64,000 nt of DNA from a virus. The stretch covers positions 9,026 to 73,025 of the IMG/VR virus record IMGVR_UViG_2937877337_000001; one strand, written 5' to 3'. The notes below the pieces were generated by a model that made no database searches, was not told the DNA's origin, and worked only from the letters and a program-made list of their open reading frames with translations. This document shows, piece after piece, positions 703 to 60,608 of this stretch. How positions within the stretch are numbered: the stretch's first letter is position 1; every line of letters starts with the position of its first letter. Position numbers and translations under genes: made by a program.

Positions 703-1401
703 TCAGATATCCAGATCGAAATCGTCCGACTTCGGCTTGCTCGATGTGCCCGAGGTCGAAGGGCCTTCGTCGAAGCTGTCGTCGGCTTCCAGCGTGTCGA
801 AATCGTCGTCATCCACGTAGATGCCGCCGCCGCCGAGACGATCGCCGACCTGGCGCGAGCGAATTGCTTCGACCGAGCAGGTAATGCGCGGCGTGCCGCC
901 GTTCTCGGTGCCGTACCACGACACGATCACGTCGCCGTAGGTTCCATTGTAGACGACTTCGGGGATTTCGCTGACTTCGATGACGCGCTTGTTGCGATCG
1001 CGAATCTGCGGGCGCTTGAGGCCACCACTCGGCCCCTTCGCACTGACGACAATGTTGCCTTCGTAACCCTTGTAGATTTCGCCGGCATCCGTCTTGAACC
1101 GATCGCCCTTCTTGAAGGAAAGGTTATCGGGCTTGTCATCCCACAACTGCTTCCACCAGTCCTCTGGCTTCTTGAACTCGCGTCCCGCAGCCTTCATCGC
1201 GGAGATGCAGGCGGCCTTGTTGCTGTCGTAGTCCGGCGTGCCCTTTTCGAGAATGAAATTGGCGCCGTGCTTCGGCTTTGCATTCGGGTCCTTGTTCTTC
1301 TTCGGCAGCGACGCTGTATGCAGCGAGTCTGCGAAGGAGATGCGGACGTTCGTCAAGGTGACGGTTCGGCCGGTTTTGTCTTTCTCGTTTACTTTTCCCA
1401 T
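703..1401 (-). CDS. phage single-stranded DNA-binding protein, DUF2815 type, with acidic C-terminal tail (DDFDLDI)
   Basis: N-terminus MGKVNEKDKTGRTVTLTNVRISF is typical of DUF2815 phage SSBs. Gly-rich linker plus acidic C-terminal peptide. Sits in the replication module. Confidence 0.7.
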   Translation of the reverse strand: MGKVNEKDKTGRTVTLTNVRISFADSLHTASLPKKNKDPNAKPKHGANFILEKGTPDYDSNKAACISAMKAAGREFKKPEDWWKQLWDDKPDNLSFKKGDRFKTDAGEIYKGYEGNIVVSAKGPSGGLKRPQIRDRNKRVIEVSEIPEVVYNGTYGDVIVSWYGTENGGTPRITCSVEAIRSRQVGDRLGGGGIYVDDDDFDTLEADDSFDEGPSTSGTSSKPKSDDFDLDI

Positions 1402-1437: not shown

Positions 1438-2667
1438 TCAGGTTTCGGCGGTATCGAGGTCGTCAAAATCATCGTCCCACTGCACAAGTGCAGGCTTCGG
1501 ATGATCTTCTGGCACCAGCTTTGGCTTTCCCGGTGGACGAACCAGAAGGGTTTGCAGGGCCTCCCACGTCTTGGGATGACCTGCCCTTTTTCTACCCGGC
1601 TTGACGAGCTTTTCGATCTCGCCGATGCCGATGAGTTCTCGGGGCTTGTATGCCTTGTCGCCGAGTGCGGCGGTCAGCAGTAACTCACCCTTTTTGACAT
1701 CCTTGATGCGACGATCGCCAAGGTCGCCGTCGACTGCCTTCGAGCCCGGATCGGGCTTTCCATCCAGCGCGGCGCGCAGCGACTCGTCATGCAATTCGGC
1801 CAGTCTGGCACGAATGTCGGGAGCGTGCTTGACCACCAGCCAGCGGCGCTCGCCGACCAGGTTCTGCCGCTCGTAGCCGGGAATGATGGTGTTGGGCAGT
1901 TCTGGATAGGCGTCCGCCGCCATCTCCATCAGCCAGCGGTCACGCGGTGGACAGCCGCCAGGTGCCTTGCGAACTTCGCACCACTTGCAAGCTTTCTCGC
2001 TCGGCTTGAACTCGACATCGCCGGATTCAATCTTCGCGTAGACGGCCTTCATTTCCTCGCCGAACGCGAGCAGTTCGTCGAGCGTGATTTCCCAATACTT
2101 CATGCCGCCCGCGCGCGGCTGATCGATGTTGATCACGATCTTCTCGACGTGCGGGCGACCGAGGAAGTGCCACATGCCGAGGGCGTAAAGGCGCAACTGC
2201 TTGTTGCCTTTCGCGTCAACAGGAACGCCGGCCCCAAACTTCAAATCGGAGATGTAGAGCACGACGCCGGAACTGAGCGCGGTGCTTGACAGCCAGCCCG
2301 TGTCGCAGGTACCGAACTGATCCGGCAGCCATGGCGACAGGTCCACCTGGATTTCGACATGCGGCGCGCCAGTGTGCTCGCGGACCCAATCAATGCCGGT
2401 CTGCAGATGATCGGCCATCGTATCATCGACGACGTAGGTGAAACCGTCTGCGCTGATCGTGGCGCCGACGAAGTGCCGCGCATCCAGCCCGAAGACCAGA
2501 CACATCTCGCGGACTTCGTGCGCAACGGTGCCCTCGGCAGACCAATCAGACGCGTCTCGATCGCCGATTGCGCCGTCAACATGCAGCTTGTCGAGCAGCC
2601 CCACGGATGCTGTGCATGTTGACCAGCGATCGCAGCCGGAAGGGGAGAGACGCGCGTGCGAACCCAT
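1438..2667 (-). CDS. DUF2800-family PD-(D/E)XK (Cas4/RecB-like) nuclease with C-terminal Cys cluster
   Basis: 409 aa. CDRW...C near the N-terminus and CKWCEV...GGC near the C-terminus are typical of DUF2800 phage exonucleases. Acidic C-terminus DDDFDDLDTAET. Adjacent to DUF2815 SSB and PolA, as in known phage modules. Confidence 0.65.
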   Translation of the reverse strand: MGSHARLSPSGCDRWSTCTASVGLLDKLHVDGAIGDRDASDWSAEGTVAHEVREMCLVFGLDARHFVGATISADGFTYVVDDTMADHLQTGIDWVREHTGAPHVEIQVDLSPWLPDQFGTCDTGWLSSTALSSGVVLYISDLKFGAGVPVDAKGNKQLRLYALGMWHFLGRPHVEKIVINIDQPRAGGMKYWEITLDELLAFGEEMKAVYAKIESGDVEFKPSEKACKWCEVRKAPGGCPPRDRWLMEMAADAYPELPNTIIPGYERQNLVGERRWLVVKHAPDIRARLAELHDESLRAALDGKPDPGSKAVDGDLGDRRIKDVKKGELLLTAALGDKAYKPRELIGIGEIEKLVKPGRKRAGHPKTWEALQTLLVRPPGKPKLVPEDHPKPALVQWDDDFDDLDTAET

Positions 2668-4719: not shown

Positions 4720-4739
4720 AGTGTCTCCTGGTGGATGGG

Positions 4740-4885
4740 TTGAAAATCACGATTAACGTGAATGCATGGTCGTTAAATCACGTTTAAAGTCACGTTTCAA
4801 GCCCCATGTGCAATAATTTCACGTTTAACTTGATTTTGCGGAACAGCGGCGTTAAGGTCGCCTCAAATCCAACCAAGGGGACGTG
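4740..4885. promoter_or_regulatory. divergent control region with at least 4 copies or half-sites of the TCACG(T/A)-TTAA-ACGTGA motif
   Basis: cacgattaacgtgaat / aatcacgtttaaagtcacgtttcaag / atttcacgtttaacttg lie between the minus-strand operon (start 4719) and the plus-strand operon (start 4883). Confidence 0.55.
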
Positions 4886-5227
4886 ATGGAACCGAATTCA
4901 CAGTCGGCGGAACCGAAGCCAGCCTATACCGGCCGCCCGCGCAAAGACGACAACTTCAAATTCTACGATGGCGCTTTGAACAAACTCCTGCTCGACAAGC
5001 TGCCATCGGCCTGCATCAAGTTTGGCCGCATCGACACGCTCGCGCTGGCCAAGGCCACGGGGAACGCCCGTTTCACCATCTACCGGTGGCTGAATGAGCA
5101 GAGACTTTCCAAGAATGCCATCCGGTCGCTGCTCAAGGTCTCTGCCGAGACCGAGGAACGCAAGAAAAAGGGCAAGTTGAAGAAGGACGATCTGATCCCC
5201 TTCTTCGATCTCGGCGACGACCTCTGA
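4883..5227 (+). CDS. small HTH DNA-binding protein (putative transcriptional regulator), C-terminus FFDLGDDL
   Basis: Helix-turn-helix-like segment IDTLALAKATGNARFTIYRWLNEQ. AAGGGGA ribosome-binding site. First gene after the operator-rich region. Confidence 0.55.
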   Translation: MMEPNSQSAEPKPAYTGRPRKDDNFKFYDGALNKLLLDKLPSACIKFGRIDTLALAKATGNARFTIYRWLNEQRLSKNAIRSLLKVSAETEERKKKGKLKKDDLIPFFDLGDDL

Positions 5228-5249: not shown

Positions 5250-7775
5250 ATGGCAAGTGCTCCCACGCTCGACAGCGTGCTTGATTCCGTCCGTCCGCTA
5301 ATCGAGGCCGGCGCGGCGCTGCATTGGTTGGTGCCGTTCGAAAAACGGCCAATCGCGAGAGATTGGTCAGCCGCAGCCGTGCAAACGGAGGCGTCGCTTC
5401 GCGCGAGCTACCGCGACAACGCCAACATCGGCATCCGGCTCGGTGAGCCGTCGAAGACCGAGGCTGGCTACCTTCATGTTTTCGATCTCGACATCCGAAA
5501 GCCCGAACTCGCCGCCGAGGCGTGGGCCGCAGTCGAGGCGCTTTGGCCCGGCGCGCGCACGCTGCCATCGGTCATCAGCGGTTCGGGCGGCGAGAGCCGC
5601 CACCTGTATTTTGTCGCCGAACAGCCATTGCGCAAGAAGACCCTGGCTCAGTCGAATGGCTTCGAGAAGCTGTGGGACGATCGGCAGCAGAAGTTCGTCG
5701 TCAAGCGCGACTGGATGATCGACCTGTTCGGCACGGGCGTCCAGGTCGTGCTGCCGCCCTCGATCCATCCCGACACCAAGCTTCCCTACCGATGGGAGCG
5801 CCCGCTCGATCTCGACATGATCGGCTTTGGCATCGGCCCAATCATTCCCGCCGAGGCGATCGAGAAATGGGGCGTGAAGACCTCCGTCGTCGAGGCCGGC
5901 GACGAGGAAGACGAACTTTTCGATCTCACCCGCTCCGAGCCAATGGACCTGGACGCGGCGCAGATCAGCGACATTCTCAAGCACATTCCCAACGACGGGG
6001 CCGGCGCCCACTATGACGACTATGTGCAGGTCGGCATGGCCTTGCATCACCAGTTCCGGGGCTCGAACGAGGGCTTCGAACGCTGGTGCGAATGGGCGAA
6101 GCAATCGGAGAAGTTTGACGCCAAGAACGCGGCTCTGCGCTGGCGTTCGTTCAGTCAGGATTCCAAGAACCCCGTCCGCATGGCGACGCTGATCCAGATC
6201 AGCCAGACCAACAAGCTCAAGGCCGAGTTCGATTTCGACGATGACGATGACGACGGCTTCGACAACCTGCCCGCTGTCATCGAGAAGAACGACCTCTCCG
6301 ATTTGCTCGGCGTGGCTGACGGCAACGATCTCTCCGATTTGCTCGGCGACGGTCCCACGTCCGCCGCGAAAGCGGACAAAAAGGACGCTGTTGATCCTGA
6401 CTGGCTGAGCAAGTTGCATCGCAACGAGGAAGGCGAGATCAAGAGCACCCTGCCCAACGTCGGCTTGATCGTCAATAATGACCAGCGGATGCGCCTGGTC
6501 GCCGCGTTCAATCAGTTCAGGCAAGAAATCGTGCTGATCGCAGAGCCGAAGCAGGCCCGAAAGAAGCGCGACTCAAGTCACGATCCGGTCAATCTGGAAG
6601 GCGAAATCTGGAAGCTCAAGGACCCGCTGAACGGCGACAACTGGACCGACAGCCACGACACAGCGATTCGCCACATCATTGAGTCCAAGACGCAGTTGAA
6701 GGGTTACGGGATCAAGGTCACTGACCGCGATCTGCGCGGTGCAATCGACATGAGCGCGCAGAAGCGCTCCTTCCACCCCGTCAAGAAGCTGCTCGCCTCC
6801 GAGACATGGGATGGCAAGCCCCGCGTTGAGAGCCTGTTCATTGATTACCTCGGCTGCGACGACAACGAGTACAACCGCCAGGCTTCGTTGATGACGTTCG
6901 TCGGCGCCGTGGCGCGCGTCATGCGGCCGGGCCACAAGTTCGACTTCGTGCCGATCCTTGAAGGCGCCCAGGGCAAGGGCAAATCCACGTTCATCGAAAT
7001 CCTCGGGTTGCAGTGGTATAACGAACTGACCGGCGACATCAGCGACCCGAAGCAGATGGTCGAAGTGATGCAGGGCTCGTGGATTTTGGAAATCGGCGAG
7101 CTTTCCTCCATGGCCCGCGCCGAAGTCAACGACCTGAAAGCCTTCGTCAGCCGCACACACGACAAGGTGCGTCTCGCCTGGGAGAAGCGAGCCAAGGAAT
7201 TCCCTCGGCAGTGCATCTTCATCGGCTCGACCAATGACCGCGAGTACCTGCGAGACCAGACCGGTGGCCGGCGCTTCTGGCCGATCGTCTGCAAGCTGGT
7301 GGGGCAGATCGACAATCCCCGGCTGCGCCGGGAAATTATGCAGGTATGGGCCGAGGCGCTGCACATCTTCCACGAGATGGAGAAGCAGTACAACGGCACC
7401 CTGCCGCTGTTCCTGACCGACCAGGCCGCCGAGCAGGCCCTCGTCATGCAGGAGAGCCGCCGCGTCGAGAGCAGTGAAGAGATGCTGGCGGGCAAGATCG
7501 AGGCGTGGCTTGACCAGCCTGTCGGCACCGACGAGGACTTCGACGATCTGGACCCGAATGCCCCGAAGACCTTCCGCAACGAGACCTCGGTTCAGCAGAT
7601 TTGGGAAGAGATGCTGCGCCGCGACGGCTCGGTCCCGCACACCGAAGCCATGAAGATCGGCAAGGCCATGCTGATCGTCGGGTGGCATCGCACCGAGGGT
7701 CCGGTTACAGCCCGAGAAATCAACAAAAAATACGGAAAGTGTCGCGTCTACGTGCGACCCGGAACTGAGATATAA
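5250..7775 (+). CDS. primase-polymerase (prim-pol N-domain) / PriCT-1 / VirE-D5-like P-loop NTPase replication initiator
   Basis: 841 aa. Prim-pol-like N-terminal region (LHWLVPFEKRPIARDW...HVFDLDI). PriCT-like HYDDYVQVGMALHHQF. Walker A GAQGKGKST and Walker B-like CIFIGSTND. Internal acidic linker with a duplicated NDLSDLLG. Confidence 0.75.
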   Translation: MASAPTLDSVLDSVRPLIEAGAALHWLVPFEKRPIARDWSAAAVQTEASLRASYRDNANIGIRLGEPSKTEAGYLHVFDLDIRKPELAAEAWAAVEALWPGARTLPSVISGSGGESRHLYFVAEQPLRKKTLAQSNGFEKLWDDRQQKFVVKRDWMIDLFGTGVQVVLPPSIHPDTKLPYRWERPLDLDMIGFGIGPIIPAEAIEKWGVKTSVVEAGDEEDELFDLTRSEPMDLDAAQISDILKHIPNDGAGAHYDDYVQVGMALHHQFRGSNEGFERWCEWAKQSEKFDAKNAALRWRSFSQDSKNPVRMATLIQISQTNKLKAEFDFDDDDDDGFDNLPAVIEKNDLSDLLGVADGNDLSDLLGDGPTSAAKADKKDAVDPDWLSKLHRNEEGEIKSTLPNVGLIVNNDQRMRLVAAFNQFRQEIVLIAEPKQARKKRDSSHDPVNLEGEIWKLKDPLNGDNWTDSHDTAIRHIIESKTQLKGYGIKVTDRDLRGAIDMSAQKRSFHPVKKLLASETWDGKPRVESLFIDYLGCDDNEYNRQASLMTFVGAVARVMRPGHKFDFVPILEGAQGKGKSTFIEILGLQWYNELTGDISDPKQMVEVMQGSWILEIGELSSMARAEVNDLKAFVSRTHDKVRLAWEKRAKEFPRQCIFIGSTNDREYLRDQTGGRRFWPIVCKLVGQIDNPRLRREIMQVWAEALHIFHEMEKQYNGTLPLFLTDQAAEQALVMQESRRVESSEEMLAGKIEAWLDQPVGTDEDFDDLDPNAPKTFRNETSVQQIWEEMLRRDGSVPHTEAMKIGKAMLIVGWHRTEGPVTAREINKKYGKCRVYVRPGTEI

Positions 7776-7796
7776 TCGATCATCGAATAGGATTGA

Positions 7797-7822
7797 ATTG
7801 ACCCGCTTCGGCGGGTTTTTTC
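7797..7822 (+). terminator. rho-independent terminator after the primase gene
   Basis: gacccgcttcggcgggtc stem followed by a T6 run. Confidence 0.6.
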
Positions 7823-7829
7823 ATGCCAA

Positions 7830-8320
7830 ATGCAATCTGTTGCATGATGGGTTCCATCGCATCTGCGCTTTTCCGCGAAATGGAATGTATTCCACTTTCT
7901 CCCCGCCATTCTCAGCCTCTCACGCTCTCAGGCGGATTCCCATATAGTTTGCAGCGGCACCTTACGACCAGTCGGCTAGGCGTATGCCTCTCCTTCAGAT
8001 CCTCCTTCTTATAAACTATATCTATTTTAGGGTGAGAAGGCTGAGAGAGTGAGACAGTACTGATTTAATTGAGCTTTTTCGCTCACCCTAGTCAAAATGA
8101 GACTGAGAATGACTGAGAAGCGGTTTTGCTGCGCCGAATTTAACCGAAATCACGTTAAGATTGAAATATTCCCATCTGCTACCCCGTTTTCGTGAGCATT
8201 CCTCATATTTCCGGGGGATTGTGAGTGATCCTCACGTTTGATCTCGTTTCTCTGCGCTGAATTTCACATTTCGCGTGAATCGCGCTCAGCGCCTCCCGCA
8301 GCCGATCGACCCACCCAGGA
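7830..8320. other. putative origin of replication: AT-rich non-coding region with iteron-like CTGAGA(A/G) repeats and an AGGGTGAG / CTCACCCT inverted repeat
   Basis: No credible ORF. tgagaaggctgagagagtgagac and aatgagactgagaatgactgagaag direct repeats. Inverted repeat about 50 bp apart at about 8028 and about 8088. Additional TTCAC motif copies at 8150-8280. Lies immediately downstream of the initiator/primase gene. Confidence 0.35.
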
Positions 8321-8625
8321 AGGACCCAAAGCCACCATGCTATTGATTTCATTGCGCTTTTCGTCGTCGATGAAGCGCGGACACAATCGATCATGCCGCC
8401 TATCGAATGTGCTAACCAATTGAATTCATTATGCAAATGTGTCCTATCCCCTGCCATGCATCATGCATCGGGCAGCGCTGCAGCATGTCAACGCGTTGAA
8501 TCCGTTGCACAAAAGGCGATTGATCCTATCGCATTTGGACCTGCCACCATGCCGGCGCGGCCGGCCTAGTTGCCACGGGGCAAAGGCTGCAGAAGCGATG
8601 CGGGATATCCCGTTTCGGGCAGCGC

Positions 8626-8710
8626 CTCGACCTGGCAGCATCGAGCACGGCAGCCTCGACCACGGCAGCGCCTCGACCACGGCAGCGCCTCGACCACGGC
8701 AGCGCCTGGC
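8626..8710. repeat. 17-bp tandem direct repeat (cgaccacggcagcgcct), 3 perfect and about 2 degenerate copies
   Basis: Read directly at 8641-8710. GC-rich. Sits in an otherwise non-coding stretch next to the AT-rich iteron region. Confidence 0.75.
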
Positions 8711-9010
8711 CGCTGGCAAGCCCGAGCACATGGCGCAATGCTACCAGGCAGCGCGGCAGCCGGCTCGGGCAGCCATGGAAGGAATCCCGCGCGCGGCCTG
8801 AGATCACATTCCCGCGCCTCGGCAGCGATAGCGCGGCACGGGCAAAAGCTGGACGCATGGCCAAGCGCAACAATGCGCCGGTAGACATTGCCCTAGCTGG
8901 CGCCGCGCCTTGGAATGAGCGCTATATCACCACGGCAAGCCCGAGCGACTTCCACGCTTCCGGCTATCGGTTCGAACGGTTGGAATAGACCGCTTGACTC
9001 GGCAGCTAGT

Positions 9011-9033
9011 TTCACGTTTAATGTGAAAGTCAC
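9011..9033 (+). promoter_or_regulatory. dyad motif tTCACGTttaatGTGAAagtcac, 16 nt upstream of the 9050 start
   Basis: Near-identical copy at 11444-11468. Confidence 0.55.
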
Positions 9034-9049
9034 TAAACGGAGTCACGCT

Positions 9050-9277
9050 ATGCAATTCGATCCTTCATACAAGCCGCGCCGCGACGGGCTGCCCGAAATG
9101 ATCGCGGCGAAGATGGACTCCATTTTCTACGCTCGCCGCGCCGCTGGCTTGAATGTCCAGTTTGTGCGCGAAAGCGACGGGCAGCTTGACGAATGGTCGC
9201 TTGCCGATACTGAGCGGCGCGACGCGTTTACAGCTTCACTGCAGCGGCAAGGCATTGCCTTTGCCATTTCCCACTAG
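9050..9277 (+). CDS. hypothetical protein (75 aa)
   Basis: ATG at 9050 preceded by GGAG and the dyad motif. The longer ORF from 8915 is Ser/Ala-rich and upstream of the motif. Confidence 0.5.
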   Translation: MQFDPSYKPRRDGLPEMIAAKMDSIFYARRAAGLNVQFVRESDGQLDEWSLADTERRDAFTASLQRQGIAFAISH

Positions 9278-9288
9278 GAGTCGAGATC

Positions 9289-9582
9289 ATGGCCACAATT
9301 CAGGAAAAGATTAAGCTTGCGCGCGCCTTCGGCAGCCTGATTCAAGGCGAACTATCCCCGCGCCAATTCCGCGCCATGTGCGACGCAAACAAGGCCGAAC
9401 CGGAAGACTCTGGCGTATGCCACTCGCACGACTACGTCGACGCGAATATGACCATGCTTGCCGCCTTTCAAGCGACGTTCAACCGCGATCCGGCATTCCT
9501 GAGCGACTCGGAAGAAACGGCAGATTTGCAGCTTTGGAATGACGCATGGGCGATTGCCAAAGCTGCCGATTTCTTCGCCTGA
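9289..9582 (+). CDS. hypothetical protein (97 aa)
   Basis: AGGAG ribosome-binding site. Clean composition. Confidence 0.55.
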   Translation: MATIQEKIKLARAFGSLIQGELSPRQFRAMCDANKAEPEDSGVCHSHDYVDANMTMLAAFQATFNRDPAFLSDSEETADLQLWNDAWAIAKAADFFA

Positions 9583-9589
9583 ATAGACT

Positions 9590-9613
9590 TTCACCTTTAA
9601 CGGGAGATTCACC
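9590..9613 (+). promoter_or_regulatory. motif variant TTCACcTTTAACGGGAGATTCACc ending 1 nt before the ATG (the GGGAGA doubles as the ribosome-binding site)
   Basis: Same 24-mer again at about 9856-9880, about 12782-12805 and about 28605-28628. Related copy at 26113-26136. Confidence 0.55.
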
Positions 9614-9614
9614 A

Positions 9615-9866
9615 ATGCTTGCCAAATTGCTTGCAACCGCTTGCGCCACGGGCATTAGCGCCTTTGCGCTTGTGTATCGCATTCCAGCCCTGCCCGAGAC
9701 GGCGCCACGGTTCGAAGTTCGAGTCGTCACCTATGACGGGCAGCTATTCATTGCCGGAAGCGGCGACGATTGCCGCGCGGCATGGCAAGGCGCCGAAGTG
9801 CCGAAGGGCTGGCAGTCAATCGAATGTGTCGACGCAAATGCGCCGCGCTTCGCCTTTCACTTTTAA
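9615..9866 (+). CDS. small exported protein (83 aa) with N-terminal signal or lipoprotein-like segment
   Basis: MLAKLLATACATGISAFALV signal-like N-terminus. Motif plus ribosome-binding site directly upstream. Confidence 0.5.
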   Translation: MLAKLLATACATGISAFALVYRIPALPETAPRFEVRVVTYDGQLFIAGSGDDCRAAWQGAEVPKGWQSIECVDANAPRFAFHF

Positions 9867-9882
9867 CGGGAGATTCACGACG

Positions 9883-10095
9883 ATGGATCACAAACACGCC
9901 ATTTCCCTTGTCACGCTGGCGCGCCACGCATGGCAGAACGGTTTCCCTATCACTGCCGACGTTTACATGCGGCAGGCGCTGGCTTGCCTCAATAGGACGC
10001 GCGACACGCGGCACAAGGCAGCGCTTTTCACCATTCGCAACAAAATGCGGCCGCGCGTCCAGGCTGCCCGCAATCCGTCGCCAATTGGAGCTTGA
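9883..10095 (+). CDS. hypothetical protein (70 aa)
   Basis: ATG at 9883 immediately after the motif copy at 9856-9880. Confidence 0.5.
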   Translation: MDHKHAISLVTLARHAWQNGFPITADVYMRQALACLNRTRDTRHKAALFTIRNKMRPRVQAARNPSPIGA

Positions 10096-21725: not shown

Positions 21726-21850
21726 AAGAGCTTTTGGAATTCTACGTCTCGGGCTTCGGCACCTGGGCCGGCCTGACCATCGGTCTCGCCATCGTGTGCG
21801 GCGGCGTCCGAAACTCGTTCTGCTTTCTGCTGAATGTGTGGCGCTCATGA
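21722..21850 (+). CDS. small membrane protein (42 aa), not in ORF track
   Basis: AAAGGAGA ribosome-binding site. MKELLEFYVSGFGTWAGLTIGLAIVCGG TM helix. ATGA-coupled both sides. Confidence 0.35.
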   Translation: MKELLEFYVSGFGTWAGLTIGLAIVCGGVRNSFCFLLNVWRS

Positions 21851-22497
21851 GCGAAGCATTGCTCCTACACCCGTCGCGCCATCCGACAATTCCAATCTTC
21901 AACTTCGAACGGGAGCCCCGTAACATGCATTTCATTCTCGATTGCGACGGCGTGCTGCTCGACTGGACGCGCGGCTTCCGGCATTGGGTCTTTGCCAACC
22001 ACGGAATCAAGCCGAGCGCCACCGGCCCACGTTCCTGGTCGCTGTTCAAATGGCTGGGCCAGCCCGAGGCGCGCTGTTTCGAACTGATCCAGGAATTCAA
22101 CGCGTCGCAGGCATTCGGCGAACTTTATCCGCTGGACGGTGCCAAGGATGCTGTCGCCAAGCTCAAGGCGGCCGGCCACAAGCTGACCGTGCTGACAAGC
22201 TGCTCGGACGATCCTTTTGCGATCAAGCGCCGCAAGCAGAACCTCGATCGCGAGTTCGACGGCGCCCTCGATCGCGTCATCTGCCTCGCCCTTCGCGAGA
22301 GCAAGTCCGCCTGGCTCGAAGTGCTGCGCGGCGGCATCTGGATCGAGGACAACTACAAGAACGCCATGATGGGCGTAGAGGCCGGCCACAAGACGATCAT
22401 GTTGCGGCAGTCGCACAATCGCGACGACGAACGCAGCACCGATCCCCGCATCCACTGGGTCGATGATTGGCGTCCGGTGATTTCACTTTTTAGTTGA
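21847..22497 (+). CDS. 5'(3')-deoxyribonucleotidase-like HAD-superfamily hydrolase (NT5C-like)
   Basis: MHFILDCDGVLLDW gives the HAD DxDG(V/T) motif I in the NT5C configuration. Start at 21847 (ATGA-coupled) or 21925. Confidence 0.5.
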   Translation: MSEALLLHPSRHPTIPIFNFEREPRNMHFILDCDGVLLDWTRGFRHWVFANHGIKPSATGPRSWSLFKWLGQPEARCFELIQEFNASQAFGELYPLDGAKDAVAKLKAAGHKLTVLTSCSDDPFAIKRRKQNLDREFDGALDRVICLALRESKSAWLEVLRGGIWIEDNYKNAMMGVEAGHKTIMLRQSHNRDDERSTDPRIHWVDDWRPVISLFS

Positions 22498-26139: not shown

Positions 26140-26952
26140 ATGAACACGGTAATTGTTTACGGACCACAGGGCTGCGGCAAGACGACAAACGCGCAGGCGC
26201 TGCTGAAGCACTTCGGATGCGACAAGCTGCGTGACGATTGGACTTTATCCCGGCACCTGACCGAAGGCGCATTGCATCTTACGTCTGACGAAATGTCGGC
26301 AGAGGCAACGACGTTTCGTCAACTTTTCAGCAACGTTCGCGCGAAGCTGGTTTCATTCGATGAGGCCGTGGCCGAGATCAACGCTATGCTTGCGAAACCG
26401 ACTGATGGCTCTAAAGCCAGCAACCCAAAGGATTCTGTCGGAGCCCGCAAGTGGCGCCAGTACGCCACAGTGCCAGCCACGGTCATCGCCGAACTCGGCG
26501 TCGCGATGCTCGAAGGCGCGGCAAAATACGGGCGTCACAACTACCGCGTAGCCGGCGTCCGCGCCTCGGTGTACGTCGATGCCGCGAAGGGTCATATCGA
26601 CCAGTGGTGGGAGGGCGAGGACTATGACCCCGACGTTCCCGGCCAACGCCTGTCCCACATCACAAAGGCGATCGCCAGCCTGGTCGTCCTGCGCGATGCG
26701 ATGATCCAGGATATGCTGAATGACGATCGGCCGCCGAAGGCGAAACTCGACAAGGTGCGGGCTGACATGCAGGTCACGGTCGAAGCGATTCTGGACAAGT
26801 ACCCCGAGCCAAAGGCGCCCTTCACCGAGATCGGCGTGAAGAACGGCCAGGGTGTAACCGAGGTCAGGGTCGACGCCAACATCCATCTGACCGATATGAA
26901 CTTCAATAAGGTGATAAGCGGCATCCTCGTACCAGGCAAGGGGATGGCGTGA
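26140..26952 (+). CDS. P-loop NTPase fused to a phage nucleotide-pyrophosphohydrolase-like domain (KYGRHNYR motif)
   Basis: N-terminal VIVYGPQGCGKTT Walker A. C-terminal GARKWRQYATVPATVIAELG...GAAKYGRHNYR resembles phage dATP/dGTP-pyrophosphohydrolase-type domains. Weak. Confidence 0.5.
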   Translation: MNTVIVYGPQGCGKTTNAQALLKHFGCDKLRDDWTLSRHLTEGALHLTSDEMSAEATTFRQLFSNVRAKLVSFDEAVAEINAMLAKPTDGSKASNPKDSVGARKWRQYATVPATVIAELGVAMLEGAAKYGRHNYRVAGVRASVYVDAAKGHIDQWWEGEDYDPDVPGQRLSHITKAIASLVVLRDAMIQDMLNDDRPPKAKLDKVRADMQVTVEAILDKYPEPKAPFTEIGVKNGQGVTEVRVDANIHLTDMNFNKVISGILVPGKGMA

Positions 26953-45423: not shown

Positions 45424-48400
45424 CTACCCGCCTTGAAGTGCCGCAGAAATCTTGCGCGCGTTCCGCGTCATGTGGTTGAGGATGACACGTTCGCCGGCCA
45501 CGGTAGCCAACGCCTGCTCAAGCACGTCGGCCGGGTCGAACAGGTTGACGTTCTTCACGTTGAGCGCTTGACCGCGACCGCCGCCGCCGTTGTTGACGTG
45601 ACGCGGATCATCCTGTGTCAGGACTTCCTCGCCCTTGAGTCCAATGATCGGAACTTCGTTCGACTTGAGACCCATGACGCCGCCCGTGTGATGGCGAGCC
45701 GCGTTGGCGAAGATTGCCGGGTTGACCATCTTCGTGCCAGAACCTTCGCCGCCGATGACGCCACCCTCGTGGAACAGCGACGTGATCCAGCCGGCGATGC
45801 CGCCACCGAGGCCACCGCTGCCGCCGCCGCCTGCGCCGCCCGAGATCGCGTTGAACAGCGCCTGCTTGACGATCGCCTTGCCGATCTCGATCAGGAAGTC
45901 GGCGATGCCCTGCAACAGCGCATCGAAGAAGGCGTGTGCTGCGTTCTCCCCGTTGGCGAGCGCCTGTGCGAACGCACTGAATGCATTGCCACCGATGTCG
46001 GCCAACTGCTCGTTGATCTGCTGCGCCTGCGGGAGGAACTGCTTGTCGATCTTTTGCAGCGTCTGGCCAATGCCCTCCTGGATCGCCTGCAACTTGGCGA
46101 TCTCCTGATCGGCACCGGAACCGCCGATCGCCTGCCAGAACGCGATGGCTGCCGGGATGGCCTCTTTCAGCTTGTCCTCAACCTGACCGATCTGGTCGAT
46201 AGTGCTGGCAACCTTGCCCTGGTCGCCGGCCGCCTGCGCGATCTGCAAGCTTTGGAACAGGGCCGTGCGCTGCGCGACAAGTTGGTTCACCTGATCATTG
46301 GCATGGGCGCGGTCAAACTCGGCGCCGGCCTGCTGTTTCACCAGGTCGAGTTGCTGTTGCGTCAGTTCGACGCCGGCCTTCTGCGCCTTGTTGGTTTCCT
46401 CGACGACGGCCTTGTTGATCGCGGCCTGGCGCGTTTCCTTGGTCTTGTATTCGAGCGTCGCGGCTGCCGCGTCGGTGCGCGCCTTGAAGTCCTTCTCGTA
46501 GTCGGCCGTGAGCTTGGCCTGCTCCGAGATGCCCTTGTAGGCAGCAAGAAGACCTTCGGCGTTCGCTGCATGGTCGCCCATCTGACCGGACACTTTGTCG
46601 AGCACAGTGCCGGGCGCGCCGCCGTTCTTCTCGTCGGAGGCGTAGATGTTTTTGGCGTTGCCAGCGTTGATGGCGGCATAGATTTGCAGCAGACCGTCGC
46701 CGGCCTTCACGCCAGCGTCGGTGAGGTACTTGGCAACAGCCTGCATCTGGCTTTCGATGCTTGAATCCTTGCCCACGCCATACCGGGCGCGAGCAGCGGG
46801 ACCGAACTGTATCAGTCCTTCATAATTGTTCCCGGCACCGCCCACGATCGAGGGATTGAACGTGCCTTTCGTCTCATAGGAGATAGCGGTCAGAACGTCC
46901 TTCACGTCGATCTTCAACTGATCGGCAATGATCGTGGCGAACTTGACGATATCGCCCATCTGCTGTGCGGACGCCGAGCCGGAATTGCGCTGCGCGACGT
47001 AATCGGCCTCGTAGTTCTTGTGCGTCGAATCGAAGGCCATGCCCGCCTGAGCGCGAATCTGCTTCGTCTGCTCGGCGGTCAGCCCGAGAATATCCTGATT
47101 GAGCCTCTTGGCTTCTTCCAGCGCCGCGTTCTTCGCCTTCAGCAGTTCGCCTTCGATATAGCGCTCACGGTTCGTCAGATTGGCCTGACGCGTTTCGTCG
47201 CTCAGCGCCTTGCCCTGCTTGTCGATGATCGCCTGAATGTCGAGGCGGGCCTTCTTGTCGGCTTCCGTGAGATCGGCAGCATTCCGCTGCTCTGCCGAGC
47301 CGTCTTTGATGGCCTGCAACTCATCCTGGCGCTTCTGCACGATGTCGGCCAGTGCCACGCGCTGCGCTTCGAGGGCGCCCATGTCGGCATAGACGGTCTG
47401 GCCGGCCTCCAGTAGCGCCTTCTGCTCGGCAAGCTGGCCGTTGATTTCTTGGAGCTTCGCGCGAACGGCTTCCAAGTCCGTCGTATCGACGTTGCCCATG
47501 AGAAAATTGGCAGCGCTTTTGAGTTGCTTGGCGTTGCGCAACGCATCGTTGGCCGCGTTGTTCAGATCGTCGCCGAACTTGTCGAGTTCCTTGCTGACGC
47601 GAGTGAGCAAGCCCGACTGCTCGATGATGGTGAGCAGCGCGTCCCACGCCTTGCCGGCAGCCTTCGCGGCTTCCGACCAGGAATTGGTCTTTTCGGCAGT
47701 GAGCGCCAGCTTTCCGGCAAGGATATCCTGCGCGAGCGTCATGGCACCGGTCGTGTTGCCGGCCTTGGCCATCGCCTCTATCTGCGCGTATTGCGTCTCG
47801 GTCAGGAAGTTGAGTTCCTTGTCGAGATCGCGAACACTTTCAACCGAGCCGGTGAAGGCAGCCGACAGCTTCTTTCCAACTTCGGTAACGTCGTCACCGG
47901 AAATGGCGCTTAGCCGCTCGGCCATCTGCGCAAGCGGGGCAAAGTCCTGCTGCTGGACTCCGTCCTTGATGAACTGTTTGACCAGGCCACGGGCCTTGTC
48001 GGTCGCAACGCCGAACTCGCCCATCTTGTCGGTGATCTTGACCAGTTCTTCGGCGCTGTAACGGCTACCGTCCGCCGAAAGTGCCAGTTCCTTGTTGAAG
48101 ATCGCGAACGAGTCGGCGGCTGTCTTGAGACGCAGGGCCTCGGCGATAAACGGCGCCAGCACAGCCGTGGTCGCGGCAATGACCGGGATCGATCGGGCAA
48201 GCACGCCCATGACATTCGGCCAGACTTGGATGATCTGGCCGGCCTGCTGGGCAAAAATCTGCATCGGCCGCTGGCCGGAAGCCAGCCCCGAGATCACGTC
48301 GTTGACCTGGTAGCCGAGGTTGGTCAACTGATAGGGCCGCAGCCCGAACGCCGTGATGTTCTGTGCCTCGCCCTTGGCATTGGTTGGGCTCAGCGACGTG

Positions 48401-49221
48401 CTGCTGCGAAGCGCATCGTTCTTCCGCTTGAGAACGTCCTGCGCCTTTGACGCGGTATTGGAGGCGGCAGAGAGCTTGTTCAGTTGCGCAACGACATTCG
48501 CCGTCGCCGCAGCCTCCCGGTTGCTCGCGTCGATTCGCCGAATCCAGTCGCCGTAGCCCGACTCGCTCGTGGCGTTCAACCTGGCCTGAATTTGAGCCTT
48601 CAGGGTCGCTACCGCGTTGGCCTTTTCGTCGGCGGCGCGGTTGCGGTTCACGGCGTCGATGTAGCGCAGCCAGTTGCCGTAACCGGACTGGACGCTGTTG
48701 TTCAGACGCTCCTGGATTTCCGTTTTTCTGGCCGCAACAGCAGCGGCCTTTTCCTCGGCGGCCGAGGCTGCGATGGCAGCCGACGCCGCAGCCTGCGACG
48801 CAGCCGCCTCCCGCTCCATCGACGTGGCGAGGCGATTGAACGCGGCAAAGCCGGTCGCTGCGGTGCTGGTGATCTGATTGAGGGCCGCGCGCTTCTGATT
48901 GAGCGTATCGACGGCTTCACGGGATCGGTCGCGGACTAGCTTGATGGTCTCGGCAAGCTCGCGCATCTCCGCTTCGTTGAGACTGCCTGACTTGCGCCCG
49001 CTGTCGAGCGCCGCCTGGTAGCGCGTGACATCTGCCGTGAGTTGCTTGTAGCCGGCAACGGCTGAGTCGATCTCGGACTGAGCGACGCCGAGGACATCGC
49101 GACGGCTGGACGTTTTGGCAGCAGCAGAGAGTTTTCCCTGCTGCTGCTCGATGTCTTTGAGAACCTTCGAATACTGGTCGCGAGCCTTAACGGTAAACTC
49201 GACAACTCTCTCGTTAGCCAT
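45424..49221 (-). CDS. tail tape measure protein with internal SLT-like lytic transglycosylase motif
   Basis: 1265 aa, coiled-coil rich. Around aa 770-860: NNYEGLIQFGP...LQIYAAINAGN (GLxQ plus AYNAG-like SLT motifs). Confidence 0.8.
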   Translation of the reverse strand: MANERVVEFTVKARDQYSKVLKDIEQQQGKLSAAAKTSSRRDVLGVAQSEIDSAVAGYKQLTADVTRYQAALDSGRKSGSLNEAEMRELAETIKLVRDRSREAVDTLNQKRAALNQITSTAATGFAAFNRLATSMEREAAASQAAASAAIAASAAEEKAAAVAARKTEIQERLNNSVQSGYGNWLRYIDAVNRNRAADEKANAVATLKAQIQARLNATSESGYGDWIRRIDASNREAAATANVVAQLNKLSAASNTASKAQDVLKRKNDALRSSTSLSPTNAKGEAQNITAFGLRPYQLTNLGYQVNDVISGLASGQRPMQIFAQQAGQIIQVWPNVMGVLARSIPVIAATTAVLAPFIAEALRLKTAADSFAIFNKELALSADGSRYSAEELVKITDKMGEFGVATDKARGLVKQFIKDGVQQQDFAPLAQMAERLSAISGDDVTEVGKKLSAAFTGSVESVRDLDKELNFLTETQYAQIEAMAKAGNTTGAMTLAQDILAGKLALTAEKTNSWSEAAKAAGKAWDALLTIIEQSGLLTRVSKELDKFGDDLNNAANDALRNAKQLKSAANFLMGNVDTTDLEAVRAKLQEINGQLAEQKALLEAGQTVYADMGALEAQRVALADIVQKRQDELQAIKDGSAEQRNAADLTEADKKARLDIQAIIDKQGKALSDETRQANLTNRERYIEGELLKAKNAALEEAKRLNQDILGLTAEQTKQIRAQAGMAFDSTHKNYEADYVAQRNSGSASAQQMGDIVKFATIIADQLKIDVKDVLTAISYETKGTFNPSIVGGAGNNYEGLIQFGPAARARYGVGKDSSIESQMQAVAKYLTDAGVKAGDGLLQIYAAINAGNAKNIYASDEKNGGAPGTVLDKVSGQMGDHAANAEGLLAAYKGISEQAKLTADYEKDFKARTDAAAATLEYKTKETRQAAINKAVVEETNKAQKAGVELTQQQLDLVKQQAGAEFDRAHANDQVNQLVAQRTALFQSLQIAQAAGDQGKVASTIDQIGQVEDKLKEAIPAAIAFWQAIGGSGADQEIAKLQAIQEGIGQTLQKIDKQFLPQAQQINEQLADIGGNAFSAFAQALANGENAAHAFFDALLQGIADFLIEIGKAIVKQALFNAISGGAGGGGSGGLGGGIAGWITSLFHEGGVIGGEGSGTKMVNPAIFANAARHHTGGVMGLKSNEVPIIGLKGEEVLTQDDPRHVNNGGGGRGQALNVKNVNLFDPADVLEQALATVAGERVILNHMTRNARKISAALQGG

Positions 49222-52291: not shown

Positions 52292-52783
52292 CTAGATGTC
52301 CAGGTCGTCGCTGTCGGCGGCCTTCTTGCCACCCTTCTTCTTGGCAGCAGCTTCCGCCGCTTCCTTCGCGGCCTGCTCCTTGGCAGCAGCTTCCGCCGCG
52401 TCCTTCTCGGCCTGCTCCTTGGCGGCAGCTTCCGCCGCGTCCTTCTCGGCCTGCTCCTTGGCGGCAGCTTCCGCCGCGTCCTTCTCGGCCTGCTCCTTGG
52501 CAGCAGCTTCCGCCGCGTCCTTCTCGGCCTGCTCCTTGGCGGCAGCTTCCGCCGCGTCCTTCTCGGCCTGCTCCTTGGCAGCACGCTCATCTTCTTCCTC
52601 GGCCGAGGAAATGATGCCGGCCTTCACGAGGTCCGCTTCGGTTGGAATGACCGCCGCGCGAACGTCTGGACGTAGAACGTAGTCCAGTTCCGCGCCTTCC
52701 AGTTCGACGATCTGGCCGGGCAGCACGACCGGAGGATTCGCTTTCGGATCGCGCTGAATGGTGTGAATTGCCTTGATGTACAT
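52292..52783 (-). CDS. FI-position protein with 5-6 tandem 13-aa repeats (AKEQAEKDAAEAA) and C-terminus DSDDLDI
   Basis: 163 aa. N-terminal globular part, then Ala/Glu/Lys repeats encoded by 39-bp DNA repeats. Confidence 0.55.
   Translation of the reverse strand: MYIKAIHTIQRDPKANPPVVLPGQIVELEGAELDYVLRPDVRAAVIPTEADLVKAGIISSAEEEDERAAKEQAEKDAAEAAAKEQAEKDAAEAAAKEQAEKDAAEAAAKEQAEKDAAEAAAKEQAEKDAAEAAAKEQAAKEAAEAAAKKKGGKKAADSDDLDI
52340..52590. repeat. 39-bp tandem repeat, about 6 copies, within CDS
   Basis: cttggcagcagcttccgccgcgtccttctcggcctgctc. Read directly. Confidence 0.8.
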
Positions 52784-59889: not shown

Positions 59890-60608
59890 TCGTCACCAGG
59901 GATCATCGTGGGCCGCGTGTCGGTGTCGGCCAGTTCCTTCTCGATCTCGCGAGAATGCGCGTTGGTCTGAAATTCGCGCGGGAAGTCTTCGAGCTTCGTC
60001 TTGATCTGCGCGTTCATGTCGGCCACGCGATCGACGAGGAAGTTGTACTGCTCGTCGCTCAGCTTCTCACGGCCGGGCATATCCTCGATCCACATCTTGC
60101 TCTCGTGCCGGATCAGCATCGAGACGCGGGCGAAGGTCATCAGCACATCTTCATCGTGCCAAAGCTGGCCGGCCGCCGTGAGCGCCCGGATGCGGGCGTT
60201 GGTCATCTCCCAATATGCCTTGGAAACGATTGGCGGAAGCGACGCCTGGTTCTGCTGCGCCAGCCAGTCTTCGATGCTGCCCTGTGGCGCGATCAGATAC
60301 GACATTGCCGTGAGGAAATCGTACATCGGCTGCTGCTTGCCGCCGTGAGTTGTCCAGTCTTCGACGGGACAGCGTTCGAGCCGCTTCTGAATTTGCTTGG
60401 GATAGGCGCCGAGAATGTTGGCGAAGAAGGTCACACCCTGCGGGCGACGGAATTCCGTGTAGTGAGGCAGCTTCTTCGCAGCCTGCTCCTGCAGCCGGCG
60501 CGCTGCTTCTTCCTTGGTCGGTCGGCCGCGCCTGGGGCGACCCGCATCAGGATTGTATGCCGGCTCGTCGTCGCCGAGCAGGTCGGAGAAGTCGTTGTCT
60601 TCGATCAT
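59886..60608 (-). CDS. terminase small subunit (putative); N-terminus MIEDNDFSDLLGDDE
   Basis: Trimmed to the ATG at 60608. Immediately upstream of TerL (ATGA-coupled). Basic DNA-binding-like N-terminal region. Confidence 0.5.
   Translation of the reverse strand: MIEDNDFSDLLGDDEPAYNPDAGRPRRGRPTKEEAARRLQEQAAKKLPHYTEFRRPQGVTFFANILGAYPKQIQKRLERCPVEDWTTHGGKQQPMYDFLTAMSYLIAPQGSIEDWLAQQNQASLPPIVSKAYWEMTNARIRALTAAGQLWHDEDVLMTFARVSMLIRHESKMWIEDMPGREKLSDEQYNFLVDRVADMNAQIKTKLEDFPREFQTNAHSREIEKELADTDTRPTMIPGDE

Follow-up and report, generated by a model that had tools for sequence, protein, structure and literature searches.

A predicted iteron origin and cos site in the gene-free gap behind the primase-helicase gene of a Casjensviridae-like phage

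The DNA analysed here, a stretch of 64,000 nucleotides from the viral record IMGVR_UViG_2937877337_000001 (positions 9,026 to 73,025; hereafter the window), comes from a tailed phage or prophage with 60% GC and contains a gene-free gap of 1274 bp (7776-9049) directly behind a primase-helicase initiator gene. In a gene map scored by the codon usage of the window this gap is the largest, the second-largest intergenic gap measuring 637 bp, which bears out a preliminary description of the region as the only long non-coding stretch, albeit with limits (7823-8914) that were slightly off. The stop codon of the primase-helicase open reading frame (ORF) at 7775 forms the left edge, and the first convincing gene on the right starts at the ATG at 9050, preceded by a Shine-Dalgarno-like aaacggag; the ORF 8915..9277 listed earlier is the frame of this gene (9050-9277) read from an upstream start. 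The comparison with related loci makes it probable that the gap is a composite, made up of an origin of replication at about 7900-8120, a cos site at 8244-8340 and a variable repeat array. The features of the locus are the following.

5250-7775, plus strand: primase-helicase initiator gene, 841 amino acids, with Pfam and PHROG matches
7800-7822, plus strand: intrinsic terminator of the primase-helicase gene, GACCCGCTTCGGCGGGTTTTTT, from a terminator scan
7910-7933, minus strand: left iteron set, three inverted 8-bp copies, GGCTGAGA, GCGTGAGA and GCCTGAGA as read on the minus strand
7934-8029: 96-bp spacer, opening with the conserved GATTCCCATATAGTTT (7935-7950) and closing with a pyrimidine-rich tract
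8030-8054, plus strand: three tandem direct iterons, GGGTGAGA, GGCTGAGA and GAGTGAGA, with a period of 8-9 bp
8055-8081: AT-rich spacer of 27 bp and 33% GC, including CTGATTT; candidate melting site
8082-8089, minus strand: single inverted iteron, CTCACCCT, which is AGGGTGAG on the minus strand
8097-8118, plus strand: right iteron set, a degenerate ATGAGA and two GACTGAGA copies (8101-8108, 8111-8118)
8120-8243: linker with conserved small motifs, its length differing among relatives
8122-8133: GGTTTTGCTGCG in the linker, first copy of GTTTCnCTGcg
8140-8158: palindrome TTAACC-N7-CGTTAA in the linker
8221-8235: hairpin GTGAG-N5-CTCAC in the linker
8244-8340: conserved block, predicted cos site, from alignments with relatives and RcD virion ends
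8246-8256: block motif GTTTCTCTGCG
8262-8280: block motif TTTCAC-N7-GTGAAT
8285-8296: predicted 12-nt cohesive end CTCAGCGCCTCC
8318-8334: block motif GGAAGGACCCAAAGCCA
8471-9006, plus strand: GC-rich array with 12 copies of GGCAGC, all on one strand
8618-8707, plus strand: 17-bp tandem repeat, 5.6 copies, consensus GGCAGCGCCTCGACCAC
8794-8988, plus strand: small-gene remnant in frame 1, the C-terminal 64 residues, reading ...DSAARAKAGRMAKR...PWNERYITTASPS...GYRFERLE*
8994-9028, plus strand: promoter-like site TTGACT (8994-8999)-N17-TTTAAT (9017-9022), preceding the gene at 9050-9277
9010-9028: palindrome TTTCAC-N7-GTGAAA, overlapping the promoter-like site

The primase-helicase served to fetch related loci (here numbered with the prefix L) from GenBank phages and from collections of viruses, genomes and metagenomes, the scan of metagenomes giving just three further full-length relatives. 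The gap itself, used as a DNA query, had no match among phage records, and a megablast of the first 20 kb of the window returned nothing beyond short matches to the RcD-cluster phages of Rhodobacter capsulatus (Casjensviridae). These are the closest cultured relatives, with an identity of 60% over the C-terminal 460 residues of the primase-helicase and of 51-65% for the terminases (small subunit TerS 51%, large subunit TerL 65%). Nearer relatives, with primase identities of up to 88%, are found in Mesorhizobium and Pseudaminobacter genomes, one of them embedded in a complete Mesorhizobium chromosome. The best explanation is that the window belongs to a cos-type temperate siphovirus, RcD/Casjensviridae-like, with a Mesorhizobium-type host.

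The iteron module (7910-8118) contains nine to ten 8-bp copies of a repeat with the core [C/G]TGAGA, in full GG(C/G)TGAGA, laid out as three inverted copies, three direct copies, an AT-rich spacer, one inverted copy and two direct copies. The core is found on the plus strand at 8032, 8041, 8049, 8103 and 8113 and on the minus strand at 7910, 7918 and 7926; these 209 bp hold 8 of the 40 matches of the whole window, in which the core is under-represented (40 matches against 58.5 in shuffles). The CTGAGA-type direct repeats of the preliminary description are thereby recovered, in greater number than claimed and on both strands, and its 9-bp inverted repeat is also present (TAGGGTGAG at 8028-8036 and CTCACCCTA at 8082-8090, 45 nt apart), the arms being the first direct iteron and the single inverted iteron. 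The AT-rich segment that it reported is real (41% GC at 8000-8199 against 60% in the window), as is the GC-rich 17-bp tandem array; the TCACG/GTGAA half-sites exist too, but belong to separate small palindromes. The first iteron begins 135 bp past the primase-helicase stop codon. In relatives, a set equivalent to the left iterons lies at an equal distance, and most of them have a hairpin equivalent to the terminator at 7800-7822. The right half of the 96-bp spacer consists to 71% of C+T, and this spacer, together with the iteron sets that flank it, can fold into a stem-loop or cruciform of about 150 nt, with DNA-fold z-scores of -2.0 in the window, -6.2 in L018 and -3.4 in L002. At the position of the AT-rich spacer (8055-8081), relatives have TTGATTTT or AAAATCAA.

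Every relative with enough sequence 3' of the primase-helicase gene follows one shared plan. A terminator and two or three inverted repeats are followed by a spacer of about 95 bp, which often begins with (GA)TTCCCATATAGTTT and ends in a pyrimidine-rich tract, then by three tandem direct copies with a period of 8-9 bp, an AT-rich spacer of 26-28 nt, one inverted copy and two direct copies. The geometry was tabulated for 12 loci, including the isolated Rhodobacter phage RcCWillis, with distances taken from start to start. From the first inverted to the first direct copy there are 119-134 bp (144 in RcCWillis), from the first direct to the single inverted copy 50-54 bp in 11 of the 12 loci (65 in L002), and from the single inverted to the next direct copy 18-21 bp, likewise in 11 (13 in RcCWillis). 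The AT-rich spacer measures 26-28 nt with 27-42% GC in all but one of the tabulated loci (49% in L002), against a locus GC of 57-61%.

The repeat itself changes from lineage to lineage, with the cores TGAGA, TGTAT (GTAT), TGGTG and TGACC among the tabulated loci. It reads GACTGAGA in L001 and RcCWillis, GGGTGAGA in L015, L017, L018 and L019, AGTGTATA in L002, GACTGTAT in L016, GGGTGTAT in L004, AGGTGGTG in L003 and AACTGACC in L053. Repeats read by eye are AGAGTGGCC (TGGCC) in L008, which stands outside the geometry table, AGGTGGAAC (TGGAAC) in L056, TGTCACA in L010 and a GTGAAC-type repeat in L009. A layout that stays constant while its recognition word varies is the hallmark of sites that are read by a co-evolving sequence-specific protein. 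Small inserted genes are present between the primase-helicase stop and the iterons at 8510-9200 (minus strand) in L001, 7530-8000 in L010, 7520-7730 in L016 and 4375-4860 in L054.

With regard to the protein, the 841-residue product combines a Prim-Pol domain (residues 18-185), PriCT_2 (240-316), a VapE/superfamily 3 (SF3) helicase (515-737) and a C-terminal winged-helix-like domain (about 774-835). The helicase is matched by the Pfam VapE-like_dom with an E-value of 6e-74, and residues 454-767 match Rep1 of the Staphylococcus aureus pathogenicity island SaPI1 (PDB 7PDS, chain A, residues 68-370) with an E-value of 6e-62 in a phmmer search of the PDB. In this search 7PDS was the sole return, and no similarity to the alpha protein of satellite phage P4 was detected. 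Furthermore, a profile of the last 110 residues, built from 17 relatives, matches Rep1 at 406-463, with an E-value of 4e-6 over the entire chain and of 0.012 over that stretch.

No gene other than that of the primase-helicase is common to all loci, and L015, L016, L018 and L019 have nothing further in common with the window. Comparison among the relatives shows that the primase-helicases are mosaics. The L016 protein has an N-terminal third like that of L015 and a C-terminal half like that of L002, and its iterons are of the L002 type; the L001 protein has an L002-like N-terminus, yet its iterons are of the window type. Among about 920 aligned columns, residue 818 in the C-terminal domain is alone in separating both multi-member iteron classes from all others, in a disjoint-set test on the protein columns of 16 sequences. 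This residue is P or S in the TGAGA class (seven loci, including the distant RcCWillis and L054), V or I in the GTAT class (three loci), R in the TGACC class, K in the TGGTG class and G in the TGGCC class. Three of the four GTAT-specific columns correspond to residues 801, 818 and 820, all of them within the stretch that aligns with the C-terminal domain of Rep1, and this clustering is suggestive of the C-terminal domain being the determinant of iteron specificity. A naive class-consistency score over the protein columns was discarded, as it was dominated by phylogeny, and residues 431-433, considered as a class-specific segment, were dropped when they failed after the addition of L053, L084 and L054.

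A natural exchange is seen between two islands, L016 and L019, which are 97-100% identical in the host flank, the tRNA-Met and the integrase, and whose match resumes at 97-99% identity in the right half of the cos block and continues for about 225 bp. The sequence in between holds primase genes with 48-87% identity per 100-nt stretch and iterons that are different and unalignable. Since the two islands match on both sides but differ in primase and iterons, it is the primase gene, not cos, that the iterons travel with. The primase-helicases of L002 and L001 are 83% identical overall, with 80-100% in the N-terminal third and about 59-67% in the C-terminal domain, which is the most diverged part. 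In L019, an Arg/Pro-rich out-of-frame stretch covers about 7230-7400 (primase codons ~745-800) before the frame is restored ahead of the last ~25 residues, which looks like a double frameshift, by decay or by sequencing error.

These properties place the predicted origin in a known kind of Rep/iteron replicon, with the logic of SaPIs and of PICIs (chromosomal islands that are phage-inducible), of pRN1 and BIP-1, and of P4, here in a complete cos phage and beside its predicted packaging site. The SaPI Reps are self-loading helicases that double as initiators, in which penta- or hexanucleotide iterons are recognised by a winged-helix domain that forms part of the C-terminal domain; these iterons, six to twelve in number, lie directly downstream of rep, with at least two on each side of an AT-rich region and in opposite directions (PMC9371898). 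The same organisation has been found in the PICIs of Gram-negative bacteria, where a pri-rep-ori segment experimentally replicates a plasmid, and the architecture was described as unique to those satellites (PMC6092414). In the window, the direct iterons at 8030-8054 and the inverted one at 8082-8089 are opposed across the 27-bp spacer of 33% GC. In comparison with the Pri-Rep-ori systems of SaPI1 (Rep1), SaPI5 (PriRep5) and the E. coli element EcCICFT073, the window has an SF3/VapE helicase and C-terminal domain homologous to Rep1, fused to a primase as in PriRep5, the predicted origin directly 3' of the gene, opposed sets of short iterons flanking an AT-rich stretch, and an iteron sequence that varies by lineage. 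It differs in that the module belongs to a full-size cos phage bearing structural genes and not only to satellites, in its 8-bp iterons with an 8-9-bp period and fixed 3+3+1+2 layout, in the additional 96-bp pyrimidine-rich spacer and in the abutting predicted cos site.

Bordetella phage BIP-1 and pRN1 have been reported to share the order Prim-Pol, PriCT_2, SF3 and winged helix and to carry, on the 3' side of the gene, a stem-loop that resembles an origin (PMC4234260). The window protein shares this order with ORF904 of pRN1 and the BPP-1/BIP-1 protein, the PriCT_2 domain being as in BIP-1, and the stem-loop of about 150 nt formed by its opposed iterons can be set beside the essential or proposed origins of those systems, a stem-loop of about 100 nt 3' of the gene. 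A difference is that pRN1 is reported to be without iterons (PMC4234260), whereas the stem arms of the window are explicit iteron arrays, the sequence of which varies between lineages together with the 3' half of the initiator gene next to them. The P4 alpha protein likewise unites a primase, an SF3-type helicase and a C-terminal winged helix that binds the origin iterons in one polypeptide (PMC4234260), but its primase is of the bacterial Toprim type. Iteron plasmids of the RepA/Pi/TrfA type, for which the criteria were a RepA-family Rep with tandem winged helices, iterons of 17-22 bp at a spacing of about 22 bp and DnaA boxes, were rejected as a model: no such Pfam or NCBIfam domain was found and the iterons of the window are 8 bp long with an 8-9-bp period. 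No DnaA-box consensus was seen on reading the sequence by eye, no systematic scan having been made.

The iteron module with its adjacent initiator is most likely the origin, being the best supported candidate in the comparative data. From the Rep homology we infer how iteron binding, melting and priming might proceed in the window phage. The C-terminal winged-helix domain of the primase-helicase would bind the 8-bp iterons, and opposed sets of iterons would seed helicase rings flanking the regions to be opened. One such pair could be formed by the three inverted and three direct copies, 120 bp apart, and a second by the three direct copies and the single inverted one across the 27-bp AT-rich spacer. 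The spacer would then melt, perhaps helped by the stem-loop of the inverted iteron sets, the helicase would encircle the single strands, and the N-terminal Prim-Pol domain would make the first primers. The minimal replicon is predicted to comprise about 5250-8243, and the specificity segment of the initiator to lie at residues ~800-820, for which natural variants are at hand.

Between the iterons and the GC-rich array, a block of about 100 bp (8244-8340) is kept at the sequence level in all relatives, whatever their iteron class, with the motifs GTTTCnCTG, TTTCA(A/C)A..GCGTGAATCG, CCCCGCC and GGAAGGACCC..AGCC. The virion DNA of the RcD phages has the primase gene as its first gene from the left physical end, and the ends were set from read termination as a 12-base 5' overhang (PMC8601537). 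RcGingersnap, RcPescado and RcSalem have records that open with GGGACGCCGACC, a 12-mer located in the homologous block. At their right ends, the records of RcGingersnap (MW677513) and RcPescado (MW677521) carry GGGACGCCGACC again, followed by AGATC or A, extra letters that look like remnants of A-tailing and of an Illumina adapter. When aligned to the window, the RcD 12-mer falls at GAATCGCG^CTCAGCGCCTCC^CGCAGCC, that is, at 8285-8296. In metagenome 3300044825, the 32.7-kb contig L003 ends with ...GAATCGGGGGTCTGTGTCCC, and the 32.6-kb contig L208 starts with GGTCTGTGTCCCCGCCCC... in equal orientation, reaching GGAAGGACCC after 34 nt; judging from these sequences, the two look like halves of a genome of about 65 kb, each ending on an identical 12-mer. 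A third contig, L008 (69.7 kb), terminates within 2 nt of the position of this 12-mer. Furthermore, of 120 viral matches to the flanking motif GGAAGGACCCNNAGCC, 6 have the expected orientation at a distance of 13-34 nt from a contig end, for which the chance expectation is estimated at well under one. The RcA phage RcCronus, which shares only TerL with the RcD phages, has GAAGGAACC within the 13 nt of its end and, 20 nt inward of this, GAAGGACCC. Lastly, blastn homology between the window and the islands extends from the start of the primase to 8335-8364, 40-70 bp past the predicted cut.

The block is thus most likely a cos site, as judged from its alignment with these ends. TerS and TerL would make staggered nicks near 8284/8285 and 8296/8297, leaving a 12-nt 5' overhang, and the ends are predicted to overlap by CTCAGCGCCTCC / GGAGGCGCTGAG after fill-in. 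The RcD phages have homologous TerL (gpA family) and TerS proteins, the same order of primase, origin and cos, and their physical ends in the sequence that aligns with 8244-8340; the window differs in its overhang sequence and in that its predicted cos is internal to the given sequence. In comparison with lambda-type cos, sub-sites of the cosB and cosQ type were not identified in the window. A coding function of the block was rejected, its substitutions showing no 3-periodicity (0.17/0.21/0.19) and relatives having 1-nt indels; its open frames are those expected in GC-rich DNA. Rfam 15 gave no match over 7000-10000 at E-values of up to 1, no tRNA or tmRNA was found, and RNAalifold of the block gave 0 and 2 weakly compensated pairs on the two strands, with no RNA covariation. 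The exact 15-mer of the block was sought in viral contigs, where 28 of 30 matches were due to chance and the remaining two were contigs already known. A third family of motifs (ATGCGAT, ATCGCAT and ACAATCGATC) occurs in the window at 7826-7862, 8383-8411 and 8525-8537, and flanks the iteron module and cos block in many relatives (L002, L004, L015, L018 and L053).

Several observations weigh against a composite of origin and cos site. The covariation between protein and iterons rests on 16 sequences, and linkage in mosaic genomes could mimic it, because the codons of the discriminating residues lie in the last 130 bp of the gene, adjoining the iterons. In 4 of 18 loci (L001, L010, L016 and L054) an inserted gene separates the iterons from the primase gene, and no locus has a gene between the iterons and the cos block. 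The GC skew along the window tracks gene orientation, an origin signal being absent. The 12-nt overhang is not conserved (CTCAGCGCCTCC in the window, GGTCGGCGTCCC in the RcD phages), and the cut positions in the window phage, placed by alignment only because of this difference, are ones that we infer. In addition, the records of RcPeripeteia, RcCWillis and RcAqua are linearised elsewhere. That of RcCWillis (OP009268) has a terminal redundancy of about 70 nt (1-70 and 68735-68804), probably an assembly overlap, that of RcPeripeteia (OP009284) starts about 290 bp from the ends of the 2021 RcD set, and the start of RcAqua (OP009265) differs as well. Given the redundancy and the offset, the ends of the RcCWillis and RcPeripeteia records were dropped as candidates for cos, and with such redundancy or differing starts none of the three is taken as having physical ends.

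The proximity of the predicted cos to the iterons raises the alternative that the iterons are binding sites of TerS (cosB-like) and part of the packaging site, as the R sites and the integration host factor (IHF) site are by lambda cosN. At 166-375 bp from the predicted cut, the iterons occupy the side that matches the TerS-proximal end in RcCronus, the inserted genes intrude toward the primase and not toward cos, and in L002, L004 and L009 the AT-rich spacer carries an IHF-like AAAATCAA-N4-TTA between opposed repeats. We nevertheless consider this explanation unlikely. The islands L016 and L019 have a near-identical cos block and flanks, but their iterons differ, and do so jointly with the primase gene. 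The phage of L002 and the genome of L001 have TerS proteins of 88% identity despite their different iterons (GTGTATAG and GACTGAGA). By our reading of the coordinates, the iterons and the conserved block are separated by a distance that ranges over 93-290 bp, while the internal geometry of the iterons is fixed. Furthermore, nine sites in opposed sets resemble the origins of SaPIs and PICIs, and a Rep1-like initiator needs iterons, the window having no other non-coding repeat cluster.

A second alternative is that of the preliminary description, in which the whole 1.1-1.3 kb form a single extended origin, with the array acting as an enhancer in the manner of P4 crr or as priming sites. In P4, the iterons are divided between two regions that lie apart, ori and crr. 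In the phage-type relatives from Mesorhizobium to Rhodobacter the three parts are collinear, and GGCAGC is strictly co-oriented in the gap, with 12 copies on one strand and none on the other. The physical ends of the RcD virions and the contig ends of L003 and L208 fall, however, within the conserved block, so that a packaged genome would have the array and the iterons at opposite ends. Three of the four islands (L016, L018 and L019) have no array, although primase gene, iterons and block are all retained, and the array unit varies freely. It is a 9-bp GGGCAGCAG in 23 copies in L017, an 8-bp CACGGCAG in L053, a 30-bp unit in L004 and a different unit of 17-34 bp in RcCWillis, in place of the 17 bp of the window; L002 also has an array of another unit length at the equivalent place. 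A single extended origin is less probable still than the packaging explanation. The earlier placement of an origin behind the initiator gene holds for about 7900-8120, with its conserved layout and Rep homologue, but not for the whole 1.1 kb, in which the block is most likely cos, the array is variable and the last ~200 bp consist of the gene remnant and the promoter-like site.

In the composite of origin, cos site and array, the array of the window corresponds to the variable, repeat-rich right end of the RcD genomes. One guess is that it serves as an auxiliary, cosB-like binding site of the terminase, as RcD phages carry GGGGCAGC motifs near cos; against this, three islands are without an array, and GGCAGC occurs often all over the window, with 157 matches where 66 are expected. 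Seven plus-strand GGCAGC at a spacing of 36-42 nt also occur at 52343-52582, in a gene of the structural region (52292-52783, minus strand, 163 residues) with a periodic repeat, in which CTCGGCC is found seven times within 52401-52700.

It is highly improbable that the repeats are operators of a transcription regulator in an early-gene control region, or belong to a non-coding RNA, since, next to the promoter-like elements and palindromes (TATAGT at 7943-7948, TTTCAC-N7-GTGAAT at 8262-8280 and the site at 8994-9028) and a terminator-like hairpin at 8220-8236 that would suit such a role, the primase-helicase gene alone accompanies the iterons everywhere, with islands adding just an integrase, a promoter scan gave 1 site against 1.2 expected, and the Rfam, tRNA and folding results above speak against an RNA.

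The ORFs listed mechanically in the gap were regarded as spurious in the preliminary description, and most of them do lack codon-usage support and the third-position GC pattern of real genes, but frame 1 of 8794-8988 derives from a real small gene. This remnant is homologous to intact genes in L002 (9669-9905, 78 residues) and L017 (8420-8665), and is the only part of the gap for which a conserved protein was found in relatives; it lies outside the iteron module. Over a 52-codon tail aligned with L002, 28 codons are identical, 16 synonymous and 8 non-synonymous, with 7/5/17 differences at the three codon positions, a pattern that indicates, on codon comparison, that the protein family is under purifying selection. 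The open frame extends back through the GC-rich array to 8524, and no in-frame ATG, GTG or TTG lies between 8524 and 8857. Because no canonical start occurs earlier, the copy of the window appears to be either a truncated gene or a shortened one, of 43 residues from the ATG at 8857. The promoter-like site with its palindrome is also found before the first downstream genes in L002 and L017. Palindromes of the type TTTCAC-N6/7-GTGAA(A/T) occur at 9010-9028 and 8262-8280 in the window, at ~9406-9424 in L002 and at ~8380 and ~8705 in L017; they lie over the promoter-like sites before the first rightward genes, with a similar one left of the predicted cut, and one regulator may bind the palindromes at the promoter-like site and at the cos flank.

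Outside complete phages, the cassette is seen in four small islands (L015, 3281-8060; L016, 3272-8440; L019, 3271-8170; L018, 5001-7975), whose hosts are Mesorhizobium helmanticense (strain CSLC115N), M. escarrei (STM5069), M. temperatum (SDW018) and a Pseudaminobacter metagenome-assembled genome. In L015, L016 and L019, a tRNA (Leu or Met) is followed by a P4-type integrase, the primase-helicase, the iteron origin and the cos-like block; no tRNA was found in the L018 island. L016 and L019 occupy one tRNA-Met site, with near-identical integrases and swapped cassettes of primase and iterons. No attR copies of the tRNA 3' ends were found within the fetched island flanks. It is conceivable, and put forward here only tentatively, that the primase-helicase, iteron origin and cos form a portable unit and that the islands are a new family of cos-type satellites of Casjensviridae-like phages in rhizobia. 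If so, the islands would replicate by their own initiator and iteron specificity and would use a helper-type cos site for packaging, with cos doubling as a recombination boundary for cassette swaps, and the origin architecture described for PICIs only would descend from, or be shared with, bona fide phages. The presence of the cassette in islands of nitrogen-fixing symbionts points to possible satellites, compatible replicons and cos-packaging vectors for Mesorhizobium.

The literature searched neither annotates nor discusses an origin for the RcD/Casjensviridae-like phages of Alphaproteobacteria, and neither an origin, a packaging site nor the array has previously been described for this group. 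A SaPI/PICI origin architecture beside a Rep1 homologue in a complete phage bears on the source of satellite replicons.

The remaining genes of the window include a structural set with a lambda-type TerL, a portal, an S49 protease, capsid E, a tape measure (45424-49221) and a lysozyme. Genes at or near the replication and packaging modules are the following.

703-1401, minus strand: Enc34-type single-stranded-DNA-binding protein, replication module
1438-2667, minus strand: Cas4-like DUF2800 exonuclease, replication module
4883-5227, plus strand: small gene preceding the primase gene
57706-59862: TerL, lambda type, with Pfam GpA_ATPase and GpA_nuclease matches
59886-60608: TerS

A divergent intergenic region of 163 bp (4720-4882) separates the minus-strand replication and recombination genes (to 4719) from the plus-strand gene at 4883-5227, whose RcD counterpart is annotated as a helix-turn-helix protein. 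Further into the window, the gene at 26140-26952 (plus strand) encodes a protein in which an N-terminal dATP/dGTP diphosphohydrolase domain (MazZ-like, PF18909) is joined to an AAA/kinase-like part, and that at 21838-22497 (plus strand) an NT5C-type 5'-nucleotidase; together, the two proteins hint at nucleotide-pool manipulation or DNA modification.

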